This document shows, piece by piece, positions 2,065 through 15,273 of a DNA stretch of 64,000 bases (position 1 is the stretch's first letter; every line of letters starts with the position of its first letter). The notes beneath the pieces were generated by a model that saw only the letters and a list, made by a program, of their open reading frames with translations, was not told the DNA's origin and did not search any database. The stretch is from a virus. Taxonomy: Duplodnaviria; Caudoviricetes. The position numbers and the translations under genes were made by a program. The stretch lies in IMG/VR virus record IMGVR_UViG_3300028854_000488; one strand, 5' to 3'.

Positions 2065-2850
2065 TTAATTAAAATAATTAAATTCTTCTTCAATAGCATT
2101 AATCAATTTTGGCATATTAGCAGAATAAAAACCAGCAGCATTAATACAACCCAATTCAACTATCTTATATTCAGGTGTTCCATTAATAATAACTTCACAT
2201 ATATCAATAACAAAAGAATTTGCTATTTGATAAATTTTAATCATTCTTCTACAAAATTCTAATGCACCATCATCAACAACTTCACTTCTGTGAATAAAAC
2301 TACCCATTCGATAAAGACTTCCAGTTATAACTTGTCCACCAACTATCCAAAATCTAAATTCTTTGGTTATTTTTTTAACAGAACTAACTTGTATTTTAGT
2401 GTCTTTTGTTAATGATGTTTCATATTCACTATTTAAAAAAGAGTCTCTAAATTCTATCCATTCATACATATCAAATACCTTTCCTGTAAAAGTTTTCGTA
2501 TCTTCACATGGTCTTGCAAAAAACAAGTCAGTTCTATTAATATTATCTCCAAAGTTTTGAATTATAGAGTCATAATTTAATAAATTATCTTTATAATAAC
2601 TACTATAAATTCTATAATCATGATTTTTATTCAATTGAGAGCCAGGAAACCATTCATATTTTTTTGCTAATCTTGCCATTTTAACAGAACCAAAACAAAA
2701 AACATCTTTTCTATTAGTATTAAACTCAAAATCTTCAACAAAAGGTAAAACCTTAACTATCTCATACGGTAATTCCATTCTATCTAATGCTTTAACTAAA
2801 TTATCATAATTTTCTTCTTTAAAAGTATTTTCTTGAATTACGTAGTACAT
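2065..2850 (-). CDS. ATP-grasp domain protein (R2K/DUF4343-like)
   Basis: FFARPCEDTKTFTG, KEFRFWIVGGQVITGSLYR, FVIDI, IVELGCINAAGFY. Confidence 0.8.
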   Translation of the reverse strand: MYYVIQENTFKEENYDNLVKALDRMELPYEIVKVLPFVEDFEFNTNRKDVFCFGSVKMARLAKKYEWFPGSQLNKNHDYRIYSSYYKDNLLNYDSIIQNFGDNINRTDLFFARPCEDTKTFTGKVFDMYEWIEFRDSFLNSEYETSLTKDTKIQVSSVKKITKEFRFWIVGGQVITGSLYRMGSFIHRSEVVDDGALEFCRRMIKIYQIANSFVIDICEVIINGTPEYKIVELGCINAAGFYSANMPKLINAIEEEFNYFN

Positions 2851-2919: not shown

Positions 2920-3660
2920 ATGCAAACAATTTTTCAAAAGTTCATAAATGAACACATATCACCTGATATAACACGCTCTCTGAAATATAAGACAGAACTA
3001 CCATTAAATGATGAAATATTTATGTCCGCTGTTGAAAATACACCAGGAACAAAAATATTAGATGATGGACTATTACTAAATGTAGTTCGTTACCAAAAAC
3101 CAGAGCAAGATGGAGAAACATCAATAAGAACTGGTGTATTCTATCTACCAATAGAAGATAAAAATGTCAAAGAATATCGTGGAGGAAAAAGTGGTTATGG
3201 AGGAACAGATAAACATGAAGGAGAAATTCTATTAAAAAATCCACTATTTATAAAAGGCGCAACTGGAGGTAAACTTTCTGAAAATGCATATGACAAAATT
3301 AACGGAAAAGGTGCTACGAATGAATTAAAAGATACTATATTCAAAACTGCAATTAAATATAATCCTCAACCAGAAGATGTTGCTGATGTACTAACTAAAT
3401 ACAATAAAGACTCTAATTATGATGAAAATTGCGATTTAGGATATGATATAATAAGACATAGTAGACAACACAATACACTCAGATACGCAATACAAGAAAA
3501 TATAATAGCAAATTCTGTTAGAGATGCTGGATATGATTCAATTTTAGGATATAGTAGAAGAAAAAATGGAGATTATTATATATCTGAAATATTTGATGTA
3601 AGAGAATTAACATATCCATCAAATGATTGGAAAGCAGATATACACAGTAAATTTTTATAA
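2920..3660 (+). CDS. Hypothetical protein, possible virion-associated ADP-ribosyltransferase-like domain
   Basis: N-terminal MQTIFQKFINE motif; GVFYLP, LLKNPL, AGYDSI, SEIFD loosely recall ART-PolyVal-type domains. Confidence 0.35.
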   Translation: MQTIFQKFINEHISPDITRSLKYKTELPLNDEIFMSAVENTPGTKILDDGLLLNVVRYQKPEQDGETSIRTGVFYLPIEDKNVKEYRGGKSGYGGTDKHEGEILLKNPLFIKGATGGKLSENAYDKINGKGATNELKDTIFKTAIKYNPQPEDVADVLTKYNKDSNYDENCDLGYDIIRHSRQHNTLRYAIQENIIANSVRDAGYDSILGYSRRKNGDYYISEIFDVRELTYPSNDWKADIHSKFL

Positions 3661-3668
3661 TATATCAG

Positions 3669-4100
3669 TTATGCCTTTTTAAATCTTTCTATTAATTCAG
3701 AAACCAAACAAATTTCATCAATTCCTTCTAATGGAGTAGCTGTTATTATTTCTCCTCGTTCTATAAAAGTTTTGACACCAATAATAAATTTATGTACAAT
3801 ATTTGTTTTAGTTTTTAATAAATAACCATTGTAAGCTTTTTGTTTTGCTCTATCTGATCTATAAGATGCTGTCAAATCAATATAATATTTAATACCATTT
3901 TGTTCTATTATAAAATCAAAATCTATTATTTGAGTTAATCCATACTGATTTATAAATGTTGGTTTTTGAGATTTTTTTGCTTTATCATAACCTGTTTTAA
4001 ATTTAAATTCTTTTTCTAAATTACTACCATTTATAGATTTTTTTCTATTTTCTTTTGAACTTGACGTTTTTTTAGTTCTTTTTATTTTTTCTGATATCAT
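3669..4100 (-). CDS. PD-(D/E)xK nuclease, type II REase-like
   Basis: E..DFDFII....YYIDLTASYRSDRAKQ; start moved to MISEK because the longer ORF overlaps tRNA-Lys. Confidence 0.5.
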   Translation of the reverse strand: MISEKIKRTKKTSSSKENRKKSINGSNLEKEFKFKTGYDKAKKSQKPTFINQYGLTQIIDFDFIIEQNGIKYYIDLTASYRSDRAKQKAYNGYLLKTKTNIVHKFIIGVKTFIERGEIITATPLEGIDEICLVSELIERFKKA

Positions 4101-4154
4101 CTTGTATATTTTATACAAAATATAGTCGAATAATACACAAAAGTTTAAAAAATG

Positions 4155-4226
4155 TGCTCTTGATGTGAATCGAACACACAATCCTTTCCTTAAGAGGGAA
4201 CCGCTTTACCATTGAGCTACAAAAGC
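4155..4226 (-). tRNA. trnK: tRNA-Lys(CTT), class I architecture
   Basis: Acceptor GCTTTTG/CAAGAGC, anticodon loop CTCTTAA, T-loop TTCGATT, 5-nt variable region. Confidence 0.9.
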
Positions 4227-4238
4227 ATTTTAATGTCA

Positions 4239-4332
4239 AAAAAGATTACAAAGGTTGCCAACCTTTACTGATGACTAGTTAGAAACTATTAGAATCAAAC
4301 CAAGACTTTCAGCACTTCATCAATAATCTTTT
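4239..4332 (-). ncRNA. Candidate structured ncRNA in tRNA cluster
   Basis: Nested stems AAAAGATTA/TAATCTTTT, TTGATGA/TCATCAG and hairpin AAAGGTT/AACCTTT. Confidence 0.4.
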
Positions 4333-4339
4333 CTTAGAG

Positions 4340-4426
4340 GGTGCAAGATGAGATTCGAACTCACATTAACTATTAAGTATTCCTGATTCACAGTCAGGGC
4401 GGCATCCCTTACCGACTACATGCACC
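4340..4426 (-). tRNA. trnH: tRNA-His(GTG) with encoded G-1 and a 17-nt variable region
   Basis: G-1:C73, anticodon arm CCTGA-CTGTGAA-TCAGG, T arm GTGAG-TTCGAAT-CTCAT, variable AATACTTAATAGTTAAT. Confidence 0.85.
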
Positions 4427-4455
4427 ATATATAATATTCACATTCTGAATATTTG

Positions 4456-4545
4456 CGGTGACTGTGAGGATCGAACTCACGCAACGCTTTTTACACGCCC
4501 TACTGGTTTAGCAAACCAGCCCCTTTACCATTTGGGTAAATCACC
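4456..4545 (-). tRNA. trnS: tRNA-Ser(GCT)
   Basis: Anticodon arm CTGGT-TTGCTAA-ACCAG, long variable arm, T-loop TTCGATC, G73. Confidence 0.92.
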
Positions 4546-5250
4546 ATTATTTTTTAATTTATTAATTATTCCACTAATAGTACTTTTAGATGCATTATAA
4601 TGTTTAGCAATATCAACTTGTTTTATTCCAGAATTATACATTTTTATTATTTCTTCTCTTGAAATTTTACATTGTCTTTCTATATATTTTGAATTTTCTA
4701 CTTTATTATATATTTCTTCTTTAAATTCTTCAAAAAATTCAATATCTGAATGTTCTTCAATATGACAATTTCTACATAAAACATCACATTTATCTAATTC
4801 ATCTATAATATTATCTTTTAATTCTGCTATACTATTTATTCTAATTCCTAATGAACCAATACAAAATAATTTATTTTTTGAATCTCTATGATGAAAAGAT
4901 AATGATGCTGCACATTTATCATATCCGCATTTTTCGCATTTTTCTCCTTTATATTTTAAATATATTAACTTACTTTTTCTTCTATGTTCATTTGTATTTT
5001 CTATATTTTCATTATAATGTTTTTCCATGTGACAATTTTCACATAATAATTCACATTTTTCAATTTCTTTTTTTATTTTTGAAAATCTACTAGTTTTTAT
5101 TTGTGATATAGTAAAATCTTTATCTGTTAAATGATGAAAAGATAAGTGAAATATATTATCATCACCACATTTGATACATTTTCCACCTAAATAATTTATT
5201 GCTTTTATTTTTTTGCATAACATATCTATTTTTTGCCATTCTTTTTTCAT
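4525..5250 (-). mobile_element. Free-standing HNH endonuclease (two tandem Zn/HNH units plus C-terminal HTH) inserted in tRNA cluster
   Basis: Two CxxC...FHH...C.(L/V)LC.NCH units; C-terminal GIKQVDIAKHYNASKSTISGI HTH. Confidence 0.85.
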
Positions 5251-5293
5251 AGTTCGTATTTTTATTTGTATATATTAAATAAAAATACGAACT
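5251..5293 (-). promoter_or_regulatory. Perfect 17-bp hairpin abutting HNH start codon, with TAATATATA motif at the loop
   Basis: AGTTCGTATTTTTATTT-(AATATATAC)-AAATAAAAATACGAACT-ATG on minus strand. Confidence 0.7.
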
Positions 5294-5323
5294 TTTATTA
5301 CTTTATTAATAAACATTTTGATG

Positions 5324-5411
5324 CGGTAAGTTGAGGACCCGACCCCCATCCGATTAAACGAAACCTAGTTTTCAAGACTAGTCGTCACTCCAATTGACTG
5401 CTTAACTTACC
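5324..5411 (-). tRNA. trnS: tRNA-Ser(TGA) with 8/4 acceptor/T-stem architecture
   Basis: 8-bp acceptor GGTAAGTT/AACTTACC, 4-bp T stem GGGG/CCTC, T-loop GTCGGGT, anticodon arm CTAGT-CTTGAAA-ACTAG, long V arm. Confidence 0.8.
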
Positions 5412-5421
5412 ATTTATTTTG

Positions 5422-5503
5422 CACGCCATATTGGGATTCGAACCCATGAACCTTACGGAATGATTTTGGAGATCATCTGCTTTGACCACTTGCTTAATGA
5501 CGC
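5422..5503 (-). tRNA. trnW: tRNA-Trp(CCA) with class II-like D-loop and long variable arm
   Basis: Anticodon arm ATGAT-CTCCAAA-ATCAT, variable TCCGTAAGGTTC, T-loop TTCGAAT, G73. Confidence 0.82.
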
Positions 5504-5520
5504 ATATTATTTTTATTCAG

Positions 5521-5595
5521 CGAGTAAACGGTGAGTTCAACACCAGCCTTTGGTTTTTCAGACCAACGTACAATAAGCACCTATACGATTTACCC
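5521..5595 (-). tRNA. trnF: Atypical tRNA-Phe(GAA)
   Basis: Acceptor GGGTAAA/TTTACTC, anticodon arm TTGGT-CTGAAAA-ACCAA, T-loop TTGAACT, D-loop with GC instead of GG. Confidence 0.75.
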
Positions 5596-5603
5596 TTATA
5601 CCA

Positions 5604-5915
5604 TCACTTGATTTTATCAAGTATTATTTTTCTTTCATATTCCAAATCTAATTTCTCAATCACTGAGAATGGCGAAACACCTATTCCTGAATATGTAATA
5701 TCTTCAAATCCATTTTCTTTTGTAATTAGGCTTTCATTTTCTGATATTGCACCTGAATATTTATCATATCCTTTTTTATGTTCAATATCACCTGTACTTG
5801 GATTATATGATCCCCAACTTGATGATCTTTTTGAACCAATTGGTTCCACATAATAACTTTTACCTGTTTTTAATGACTTAACAATGAATCTACCTGTTTC
5901 ATCTCTTTGTGTCAT
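5604..5915 (-). CDS. Conserved phage hypothetical protein within tRNA operon
   Basis: GRFIVKSLKTGKSYYVEPIG...WG..NPSTG...KY.GAI.E.ESLIT.ENGF. Confidence 0.65.
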   Translation of the reverse strand: MTQRDETGRFIVKSLKTGKSYYVEPIGSKRSSSWGSYNPSTGDIEHKKGYDKYSGAISENESLITKENGFEDITYSGIGVSPFSVIEKLDLEYERKIILDKIK

Positions 5916-5980
5916 AAACTTTTTGTCGAAATCTAACTTTACCCCATGATTTTAATATTTATTTTTTATAATAGCTTCTC

Positions 5981-6041
5981 ACTATTCAGATGGATAATTT
6001 TTATGCCCAGCCTAACTGAATAACTGTCATCCACTATGACA
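5981..6041 (-). ncRNA. Candidate structured (pseudoknotted) RNA 3' of tRNA-Lys(TTT)
   Basis: Stems TGTCAT/ATGACA and TATTCAG/CTGAATA, with possible TGGAT/ATCCA pairing. Confidence 0.3.
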
Positions 6042-6045
6042 AATG

Positions 6046-6128
6046 TGTACCCTACGAGATTCGAACTCGTGTTGTCCATATGGACCCTGATTAAAAGTCA
6101 GGAGCATAAACCACTCTGCCAAAGGTAC
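6046..6128 (-). tRNA. trnK: tRNA-Lys(TTT) with class II body (3-bp D stem, long variable arm)
   Basis: Acceptor GTACCTT/AGGGTAC, anticodon arm CCTGA-CTTTTAA-TCAGG, V arm GTCC-ATAT-GGAC, T arm ACGAG-TTCGAAT-CTCGT. Confidence 0.9.
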
Positions 6129-6140
6129 TTAATATATTTA

Positions 6141-6176
6141 AACAAAAAATCCAAACTTTTTGAGTTTGGATTTTTT
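6141..6176 (-). terminator. Intrinsic terminator (putative attenuator) immediately upstream of tRNA operon
   Basis: TCCAAACT-CAAAA-AGTTTGGA followed by TTTTTTGTTT on minus strand. Confidence 0.8.
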
Positions 6177-6201
6177 ATATTTCTTTTTACATTTATTAAT
6201 G

Positions 6202-6309
6202 TCAACTTATATTTACAATAAGGCAAGAAGTATCTGTTCCAAACTTGGTTTTTCTAAACCAGAATTTAAAGGACTTTGATGAACTACTATGTTTACTTAT
6301 TGCTCTCAT
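6202..6309 (-). CDS. 35-aa putative leader peptide of tRNA-operon attenuator
   Basis: MRAISKHSSSSKSFKFWFRKTKFGTDTSCLIVNIS; contains AGTTTGGA (6238-6245) complementary to terminator 5' arm; not in ORF track. Confidence 0.65.
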   Translation of the reverse strand: MRAISKHSSSSKSFKFWFRKTKFGTDTSCLIVNIS

Positions 6310-6350
6310 TATTTTTAAATTTTTATCTTGTTATTTTTTTTTATTCTTTG

Positions 6351-6360
6351 TTATATATAA
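6351..6360. promoter_or_regulatory. TTATATATAA motif, putative phage (late-type) promoter, recurring genome-wide
   Basis: Same (T/A)TATATA core just upstream of many genes (about 34052, 44991, 46113, 48967, 53358, 54799, 56586, 63225). Confidence 0.55.
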
Positions 6361-6411
6361 TAGGAAAAAAGTCATTTTTTTCTATTTTTGTTTTCTTTTA
6401 ATTTGATAGTG

Positions 6412-6443
6412 CAAAATTACAAAAAAGTTTTCAAACTACCAAA
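6412..6443 (-). promoter_or_regulatory. Bacteroidota-type sigma promoter
   Basis: TTTG-N20-TAATTTTG. Confidence 0.75.
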
Positions 6444-6472
6444 AATTTATTGAATTATTTTAATTATTTTAA

Positions 6473-6715
6473 TTATTTTAATTTTTTAAATAAATCATAT
6501 GGTAAATTTGTAACGAATTCAATACCATCTTCATCATTTTCCCAAGTATAATCATTTTCTTCCATTATTTTATAATCTCCGAACAATAATAATATTTCTC
6601 TCAATAAGATACTTTCTATGCTTGCCAACTCAATATCAGAAACAATAACCAAATTATTATTATTTTCAAACATTACGCTACCTATTTTTTTTAAATCTTC
6701 TTTATATAAATTCAT
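6473..6715 (-). CDS. Small acidic hypothetical protein (early-promoter cassette)
   Basis: ORF directly downstream of promoter at 6749-6780. Confidence 0.55.
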   Translation of the reverse strand: MNLYKEDLKKIGSVMFENNNNLVIVSDIELASIESILLREILLLFGDYKIMEENDYTWENDEDGIEFVTNLPYDLFKKLK

Positions 6716-6748
6716 ATTTTATTTTGTTTTTCTTTTAATTTGATAGTA

Positions 6749-6780
6749 CAAAATTACAATAAAGTTTTTAATCTACCAAA
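6749..6780 (-). promoter_or_regulatory. Bacteroidota-type sigma promoter (near-duplicate of 6412-6443 region)
   Basis: TTTG-N20-TAATTTTG inside an imperfect direct repeat of about 85 bp. Confidence 0.75.
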
Positions 6781-6810
6781 CATTTATTGAATTAATTTTA
6801 AATTATTTTT

Positions 6811-7080
6811 TTAGATAAATTTAAAATGTATTCCTTCAATCATTTCAACATCCCTACCATCATATTTTTCTGAATCTTCTGATAAATATACTCTACCGCC
6901 ACATTCTAAGTAAATTCCACCTGGGCAATAAAGTAATTGCATAATACTACCAGGTTCTAAATTTTCATCTGGATAATCCAAATATGTATTATCAATATCA
7001 GATAATAAAACTAACAATTCTATATCAATTGGTTCGAATAATTTTAATATTATTTTATTATTAGTCTTTATATTTAGCAT
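6811..7080 (-). CDS. Hypothetical protein
   Basis: Open 89-aa frame, no motif recognised. Confidence 0.5.
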   Translation of the reverse strand: MLNIKTNNKIILKLFEPIDIELLVLLSDIDNTYLDYPDENLEPGSIMQLLYCPGGIYLECGGRVYLSEDSEKYDGRDVEMIEGIHFKFI

Positions 7081-7972: not shown

Positions 7973-8004
7973 CAAAATTAGAATATTTTTTTAAATCTAC
8001 CAAA
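7973..8004 (-). promoter_or_regulatory. Bacteroidota-type sigma promoter
   Basis: TTTG-N20-TAATTTTG. Confidence 0.7.
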
Positions 8005-14196: not shown

Positions 14197-15273
14197 TTAT
14201 TCAAAAACGTTATCATCGTAGTATTTTTCTATTGCTTCTTTATAAAACAGCACTTCTTTCATATTAATTGGTTTGAAGTGATTACCATCAACTCCAACAT
14301 CAAGTCCATATCTTTTAACTTTTTGTCTACCATGAATGTGACCAAATAGATTAAATAATCTTTTGTTAGCATTCAATGGTTCATGAGTTAAAAATAAATT
14401 TTCATTTTTATCAAATTCGTTAAATGGTAAAACTTTTTCATCATCAATATTAGTTGATATTATTAAATCATTATATACATTTTTAAACCCTTTGTCTATC
14501 AACATTTTTTTAAATGATTTAAAATCTCCTTTATAATCTTTATTCATTTCATCTATTTCATAATTTCCTAATATTAAGAATATATTACCATTCAATTTAT
14601 TAATAAATGAGTAATTTCCAAAATCACCCAAATTATAAACAGTATCATTCGGTTTAACAACTGAATTCCAGCAATTAACCATATATTGATTCATTTCTTC
14701 AACTGAAGTGAAAGGGCGTTTAGATAAATCAAGTGTTCTTTTACTTCCGAAATGTTCATCAGACGTAAAAAAAGTATCTGGTTTAGAATTTGATAAAAAA
14801 TCTATTTTATTTTTAACTTCATTTAATACTTCTTTATAAGTATTAAGTACTTTAACATTATAATCTTTTTCAAGTCTATTTTTAATGTATTTTTTCATTG
14901 GAAATTCTTCATCAATTCCAATTATAATTTTTTTATTACATTTTGAAATCCATTCACCAATTTCAAATCTAGTAGTTTGTCCATACATTCTACCTTCTAT
15001 TTTTTCCTCTTCTTTTGGAATCCAAAAAATAAGTATATCAGCTTCATTTAAATATTCTGTTTCCCATTTTACTTGTTCATCAAAATTGAATTTTGATTTA
15101 TCTAATGATTTTCTTCTTGGATTTGTAACTACTAAATTTTTATATCCAGATAAATCATTGCATATATTTGGTTGCCAATTAGGTGCACCTTGAATAGGTC
15201 CACCTAAAAAAACGTATACATTATTTCCTTTTTTATCATCAATTTTTTCAGGACTTGTTATAATTTTTGTCAT
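14197..15273 (-). CDS. Fusion of nucleoside 2-deoxyribosyltransferase-like and calcineurin-like metallophosphoesterase domains
   Basis: VFLGGPI...WQ...NPRR...QVKWE..YL..AD.LIFW..TTRFEIG; then FTSDEHFG, LGDFG, GNYE, LTHEP, GHIH. Confidence 0.85.
   Translation of the reverse strand: MTKIITSPEKIDDKKGNNVYVFLGGPIQGAPNWQPNICNDLSGYKNLVVTNPRRKSLDKSKFNFDEQVKWETEYLNEADILIFWIPKEEEKIEGRMYGQTTRFEIGEWISKCNKKIIIGIDEEFPMKKYIKNRLEKDYNVKVLNTYKEVLNEVKNKIDFLSNSKPDTFFTSDEHFGSKRTLDLSKRPFTSVEEMNQYMVNCWNSVVKPNDTVYNLGDFGNYSFINKLNGNIFLILGNYEIDEMNKDYKGDFKSFKKMLIDKGFKNVYNDLIISTNIDDEKVLPFNEFDKNENLFLTHEPLNANKRLFNLFGHIHGRQKVKRYGLDVGVDGNHFKPINMKEVLFYKEAIEKYYDDNVFE

Follow-up and report, generated by a model that had tools for sequence, protein, structure and literature searches.

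Enterobacterial attenuators include the multivalent ilvGMEDA system with its leader ilvL (Ile, Leu and Val) and the thr system with thrL (Thr and Ile), as well as those governed by trpL, hisL, leuL and pheL. The locus described here, which precedes a tRNA array in the DNA of a tailed phage, shares with the ilv and thr attenuators a short leader rich in regulatory codons, the alternative 1:2, 2:3 and 3:4 pairings, a terminator placed directly before the regulated genes and the putative sensing of several amino acids by one leader. Unlike these, the phage module would control tRNAs instead of biosynthetic enzymes, so that its product would act directly on the sensor, and the phage modules would sense five to seven amino acids, set by the content of the array. 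They further differ in their location in a phage, in the occurrence of several parallel cassettes per genome and in the inferred Bacteroidota-type host, which does without Shine-Dalgarno sequences.

Closest in logic is the pheST operon of E. coli, encoding phenylalanyl-tRNA synthetase, in which a gene of the translation apparatus is placed by the pheM leader under the decoding speed of cognate codons; there, however, one amino acid is sensed and a protein enzyme is regulated, not tRNA genes. T-box riboswitches likewise couple tRNA status to terminator read-through via an antiterminator, but bind uncharged tRNA directly and without a leader peptide. The regulation of phage tRNA genes themselves is barely known, and the usual view takes them for constitutive cargo. 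The Bacteroides phage crAss001, which served as a negative control, resembles the present case in being a phage of a Bacteroidota host with a tRNA array interspersed with HNH endonuclease genes, but its tRNAs form a single mixed block fed directly by a host-type promoter, and neither a leader ORF nor a terminator was found at this array. The attenuator design itself is thus known, while its use on tRNA genes was not found published: no description of leader-peptide control of tRNA genes exists in the full-text literature searched, and within that scope this agrees with a preceding sequence-only reading, which knew of nothing of the kind in phages.

The window, i.e. the whole stretch of 64,000 nucleotides that was analysed, is the reverse strand of positions 76730-140729 in a 140,730-bp IMG/VR virus contig (IMGVR_UViG_3300028854_000488; GC content 22.8%). 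CheckV estimates a completeness of about 20%, and the contig is therefore a fragment of a very large phage. The DNA runs containing the stretch are peat metagenomes. Shine-Dalgarno motifs are found in 4 of 104 phage genes, the regions upstream of the genes are A-rich, and several promoters match the Bacteroidota consensus TTTG/TAnnTTTG. A host of Bacteroidota type is inferred from these SD-less, A-rich starts and promoters, i.e. from sequence alone.

The features of the locus are listed in the direction of transcription, with coordinates of the window; L001 is a second tRNA locus of the same genome.

6412-6443, minus strand: Bacteroidota-type promoter (TTTG, 20 nt, TAATTTTG), found by pattern scan, kept in relatives and one of three near-identical copies in the window
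6352-6382, minus strand: promoter-like element (A7-TGAC-T6 palindrome, 5 nt, ATATATA), 43 nt upstream of the leader ATG and also present at L001:673-703
6202-6309, minus strand: leader ORF of 35 codons (ATG at 6309, TGA at 6202-6204) with the A-rich, SD-less initiation context of the phage's real genes
6241-6297, minus strand: putative sensing block, codons 5-23 of the leader, with 17 of 19 codons for Ser, Lys, His, Phe or Trp
6256-6270, minus strand: region 1, 5' strand of the 1:2 hairpin over the Phe-Lys-Phe-Trp-Phe codons (RNA folds, hairpin -8.5 kcal/mol)
6238-6251, minus strand: region 2, pairing with region 1 or, as antiterminator, with the terminator 5' arm; contains a copy of AGTTTGGA at 6238-6245 (codons 22-24)
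6163-6170, minus strand: region 3, terminator 5' arm TCCAAACT, with an A6 extension at 6171-6176
6140-6157, minus strand: region 4, terminator 3' arm AGTTTGGA (6150-6157) plus T6GT3 tract (6140-6149); hairpin -7.9 kcal/mol for the core, -13.5 kcal/mol extended
6045-6128, minus strand: tRNA-Lys(UUU) with long variable arm (ARAGORN and Rfam)
5520-5595, minus strand: tRNA-Phe(GAA) (ARAGORN and Rfam)
5421-5503, minus strand: tRNA-Trp(CCA) with long variable arm (ARAGORN; Rfam 25 bits, under cut-off)
5325-5411, minus strand: tRNA-Ser(UGA)-like gene (weak Rfam match of 26 bits, anticodon loop CUUGAAA taken from the sequence, no ARAGORN call)
4455-4545, minus strand: tRNA-Ser(GCU) (ARAGORN and Rfam)
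4339-4425, minus strand: tRNA-His(GUG) with long variable arm (ARAGORN and Rfam)
4154-4226, minus strand: tRNA-Lys(CUU), last gene of the array (ARAGORN and Rfam)

The sequence-only reading had claimed the 35-codon ORF with its block of Ser, Lys, His, Phe and Trp codons, a terminator just before tRNA-Lys, an exact copy of the terminator 3' arm at codons 22-24, a TGGTTT/AAACCA hairpin over the Trp-Phe codons and a cognate codon for each of seven downstream anticodons. All of these claims held. In detail, the ORF and its codon block as well as the arm copy were confirmed at the coordinates listed above, the terminator hairpin spans 6150-6170 with the T tract reaching to 6140, and the TGGTTT/AAACCA hairpin is present in the minimum-free-energy fold of the leader. 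All seven array anticodons have a cognate codon inside the sensing block, with the qualification that ARAGORN calls six tRNAs and that the seventh, tRNA-Ser(UGA), was detected by Rfam only, with a weak match.

Compared with the proteome of its own genome, the leader ORF is clearly enriched in cognate codons (19 of 34 against an expected fraction of 0.26, p=1.8e-4), and among 605 small ORFs taken from all six frames of the contig it is the sole one with 17 cognate residues in a 19-codon stretch. This enrichment is not due to chance. In an alignment of the window module with those of four strains, codons 5-18 show two changes only, both of them synonymous, and third-position changes make up 8 of the 13 ORF substitutions among close relatives (p=0.035). 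Start and stop are kept in the relatives, the stop codon changing from TGA to TAA, which argues against stop-codon recoding. Synonymous changes, third-position bias, the kept start and stop and the A-rich, SD-less start are the signs from which we infer that the leader is translated, and there is no experimental evidence of translation. In four permafrost metatranscriptome runs, 6201-6459, 6275-6426 and parts of the array are covered by short contigs of low depth; these may derive from DNA and show neither ends nor strand. A further small ORF that starts within the promoter-like element (Met-Thr-Phe-Phe...) was considered as a second leader and rejected, as neither its length nor its frame is conserved and the element also precedes protein genes.

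The near-identical Bacteroidota-type promoters of the window (TTTGGTAG ... TAATTTTG) lie at 6412-6443, 6749-6780 and 7973-8004 on the minus strand, two of them ahead of small genes whose function is unknown. The strict Bacteroidota pattern is not enriched across the window (8 sites, 6.9 expected), the three sites nevertheless forming a clear family; a scan for sigma-70 promoters stayed at background (33 sites, 31 expected). The promoter-like element can sit before or after a host-type promoter and is likely to be a phage-specific promoter or operator common to the clade. Neither host-type nor phage-type promoter motifs were found on the minus strand between 4154 and 6143, i.e. from the terminator to the end of the array; transcription of the tRNAs from a promoter downstream of the terminator, which the sequence-only reading had named as a refutation of its proposal, has thus found no support in the form of such a motif.

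On the 140-kb contig, two more modules of the same design exist outside the window. The leader of module 2 (genome 61727-61858) is a 43-codon ORF in which 35 of 42 codons specify Glu, Asp, Asn, Cys, Met, Ile or Tyr and which is devoid of Lys, Phe, Trp, Ser and His codons (p=4e-6 on background composition). It is followed by a terminator and an array of Glu, Asp, Asn, Asn, Cys, CAU, Ile, Ile and Tyr tRNAs, and an 8-nt copy of the terminator 3' arm is located at the end of the ORF. The composition of this leader is complementary to that of the window leader (Fisher p=9e-11). Module 3 consists of a paralogous 25-codon leader at genome 60238-60315 with its own terminator, followed by two CAU tRNAs. 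All three modules are kept in close strains, as a scan of IMG/VR for exact matches to the shared 5' element revealed.

The 5' untranslated element of the window module is 95% identical over 56 nt to the copy of module 3 in the same genome. Its 18-mer core occurs at 96 places in IMG/VR, 26 of which are followed by tRNAs on the same strand; the extended promoter-like motif accompanies 70 of the 96 core matches, most of which precede a protein gene starting about 50-110 nt downstream. All 13 distinct tRNA-associated copies of the element are followed by a leader ORF plus terminator, compared with 1 of 29 others (p=5e-10), and that one locus is truncated. The same element drives protein genes directly, and the leader-plus-terminator architecture is specific to the tRNA-associated copies.

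A BLAST search of the window locus against INPHARED gave matches limited to tRNA and HNH fragments, and through it we reached LR756501, a public 735-kb phage (33% GC) with 66 tRNA matches arranged in blocks. Its block of Trp, His, Phe, Lys and Ser tRNAs is preceded by a homologous 31-codon leader rich in those residues. The block of five Leu tRNAs follows a 22-codon leader with seven Leu codons comprising all six Leu codon types, the Glu, Met, Gln and Ile block a leader rich in Gln, Met, Ile and Glu, and the Arg, Ala, Thr, Val, Gly and Pro block a 42-codon leader with 25 such codons out of 41. Leaders are enriched for their own sets with p values each between 1e-3 and 2e-6, the combined value over six leaders being 2e-20, and for the four modules of LR756501 the pairing of each leader with its own array is the best of 24 permutations. 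Not every array is equipped in this way, which counts against the attenuator reading: no recognisable leader was found at the Ile, Cys, Asp, Asn and Tyr array of LR756501, nor before the solitary tRNAs of the present genome at 4850, 6763 and 64771.

That leader codons should covary with the anticodons of the array in related phages was a prediction of the sequence-only reading, and the survey of relatives was positive. Leaders retrieved from IMG/VR through the 5' element fall into the classes Ser/Lys/His/Phe/Trp, Ala/Arg/Gly/Thr/Val/Pro and Met/Tyr/Asn/Ile/Glu/Cys/Asp. Over 19 leaders from IMG/VR and LR756501, covering five amino-acid classes, the mean cognate fraction was 0.58 for the own array versus 0.14 for arrays of other classes, and 17 of the 19 were assigned to their own class. 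As many modules are homologous, the 19 leaders correspond to about five independent classes. ARAGORN, run with a lowered threshold, supplied the amino-acid sets of the relatives, and truncation affects some of the loci.

The terminator arms vary by lineage (TCCAAACT, ATCCGAAC, ACCCCGAAC, CCTCTAAGTC and others), and a matching complement is present in each ORF. Over 15 modules, the duplex between an ORF and its own 5' arm has a mean energy of -13.7 kcal/mol compared with -7.0 kcal/mol for mismatched combinations, a value reached in none of 20000 permutations (p<5e-5). The antiterminator pairing thus covaries with the terminator arm between lineages. Transcripts cut just before the terminator 3' arm were folded for seven modules, and in each of them the 5' arm paired with a stretch located in the 3' part of the ORF. 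This antiterminator segment adjoins the stop codon in modules 2 and 3 as well as in the Leu and Gln modules, and would there be masked by a ribosome finishing the leader; in the window module and its class it is located 5-12 codons ahead of the stop and escapes such masking.

The terminator of the window module is AT-rich, with 3 G-C pairs only; its hairpin TCCAAACT/AGTTTGGA has a 5-nt loop and a stem lengthened by the A6/T6 extension. The T tract is separated by 16 nt from the first tRNA, tRNA-Lys(UUU), which starts at 6128. The leader is strongly structured (z=-3.4), and in folds of its full length the closed leader plus terminator reaches -40.0 kcal/mol against -26.8 kcal/mol for the enforced 2:3 fold. 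As long as region 3 has not been transcribed, region 2 folds back as a trp-type 1:2 hairpin over the sensing codons in 9 of 9 trp-like modules. In the window module the stop codon lies 34 nt past region 2, so that a ribosome at the stop leaves region 2 unmasked. In folds with ribosome masking, proposed by the sequence-only reading as a check, the minimum-energy structure of the truncated transcript retains the 2:3 pairing, with no switch to the terminator for a ribosome at this position. For termination to occur, the 1:2 hairpin (-8.5 kcal/mol) must therefore be trapped kinetically, and we infer that switching in the window module depends on kinetics, beyond what the folds computed here show.

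Whereas the anatomy of the module, its statistics and its comparative covariation are shown, leader translation, the dependence on ribosome position, the feedback and the physiological trigger are inferred. On these grounds the element is likely to be a leader-peptide attenuator of transcription, mediated by the ribosome, through which decoding speed gates a phage tRNA operon, an interpretation supported by replication, covariation and specificity; translation, termination, regulated read-through and feedback have no experimental evidence. According to this model, transcription would start from the host-type promoter, the phage promoter-like element or both, and the 35-codon leader would be translated as the RNA polymerase advances. 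If the Ser, Lys, His, Phe and Trp codons are read fast, the ribosome would leave the sensing block, allowing region 2 to fold onto region 1; with the 1:2 hairpin formed, the 3:4 terminator would form and transcription would halt 16 nt ahead of tRNA-Lys. If any sensing codon is read slowly, the stalled ribosome would cover region 1, region 2 would pair with the terminator 5' arm and the polymerase would read through into the seven tRNA genes. The products being the very tRNAs that decode the sensing codons, a negative feedback loop on tRNA supply should result. The trigger named by the sequence-only reading, i.e. an anticodon-nuclease defence or starvation, remains an untested inference and is not supported.

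The alternative that survives best retains the same attenuator but takes host amino-acid starvation as its natural signal, read as host tRNA charging as in trp and his, which would tie phage tRNA output to host physiology instead of tRNA abundance or cleavage. Classical attenuators respond to charged tRNA, and the architecture here is the same. However, extra tRNA cannot relieve a lack of amino acids, which makes for poor regulatory logic, and the leaders span up to seven amino acids that have no common biosynthetic pathway but do have a common array. We consider this alternative unlikely.

Considerably less probable still is that the small ORF arose by chance or encodes a peptide, that the hairpin merely ends the upstream transcription unit and that the tRNAs are expressed independently. 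In its favour, the hairpin is symmetric and could work in both directions, and AT-rich genomes yield many Lys, Phe and Ser codons. Against it, the gap between the T tract and the tRNA measures only 16 nt, promoter motifs are absent downstream, the composition of the leader follows that of the array in five classes, among them GC-rich codons for Ala, Arg, Gly and Pro in AT-rich phages, the complementarity between ORF and arm covaries, and the architecture is specific to tRNA arrays. A leader working without translation, for instance as a protein- or tRNA-bound (T-box-like) riboswitch or as an element of tRNA-precursor processing or stability, would fit the conserved 5' element and the strong leader structure (z=-3.4) but is very unlikely, since an Rfam scan of 3500-7000 at E<=1 gave matches of the tRNA clan plus one chance snoRNA-like match (E=0.97) with no T-box or other non-tRNA family on the leader, since the kept start and stop, the third-position substitution bias and the frame-specific amino-acid signal speak for a reading frame, and since ordinary protein genes are also preceded by the 5' element.

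Should the leader-peptide attenuator be confirmed, tRNA genes would be under the control of how fast the very codons they serve are decoded, which would be the most direct feedback possible in translation, and leader-peptide attenuation would extend from amino-acid metabolism to the decoding machinery. It would also explain the sorting of giant-phage tRNA arrays into conserved amino-acid blocks. The modules would represent natural sensors of compact size that report on tRNA availability for several amino-acid sets, and the debate on why phages carry tRNAs, i.e. codon compensation versus escape from tRNA-targeting defences, would become directly testable by determining which perturbation opens each attenuator. 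A bolder suggestion, towards which we lean by a narrow margin, is that in one clade of giant phages, marked by Bacteroidota-type promoters, the entire tRNA complement is run in separate blocks, each autoregulated by a codon-matched leader; these would be tRNA-pool homeostats that replace host decoding capacity on demand, e.g. after loss or cleavage of host tRNAs, and would at the same time offer natural, swappable sensors of decoding speed for defined sets of amino acids.

Several further observations concern the arrays themselves. Just past the attenuator terminator, several modules carry a boxA-like sequence (TGCTCTTTGAAA or TGTTCTTTAACA), which is absent from the window module; such sites lie at L001:1431-1446 (genome 61930-61945) and at about position 14485 of the reverse complement of L018. 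An rrn-type processive antitermination of the untranslated tRNA arrays is a possibility that these sequences raise. Between terminator and tRNA-Glu of module 2 a tRNA-like element of about 160 nt is found (L001:1470-1627, genome 61969-62126). Its acceptor stem measures 7 bp and its T arm is canonical, but the insert is very large and a standard anticodon loop is missing. The Leu array of LR756501 is preceded by a similar tRNA-like element.

With their long variable arms, tRNA-Lys(UUU), tRNA-Trp(CCA) and tRNA-His(GUG), of 84, 83 and 87 nt, combine class II bodies with class I anticodons, and the discriminator bases (A, G and C) agree with the nominal identities. Long variable arms are found on other tRNAs of the relatives as well (Asn 89 nt, Asp 88 nt, Glu 86 nt).

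Homing-endonuclease genes of the HNH-plus-HTH type are placed inside both tRNA arrays (window 4525-5250 and L001:506-1195). An IMG/VR search with the HNH protein from within the array retrieved no relative; the window copy shows 67% DNA identity to one within a tRNA array of LR756501. Between tRNA-Lys and tRNA-Phe an ORF of 103 amino acids (window 5604-5915) has no family match and is 80-98% identical across all close relatives; used as a query, it retrieved only close strains. Finally, shortly downstream of the array, window positions 2065-2850 encode an ATP-grasp protein of the R2K clade (Pfam PF14243, E=5e-15).
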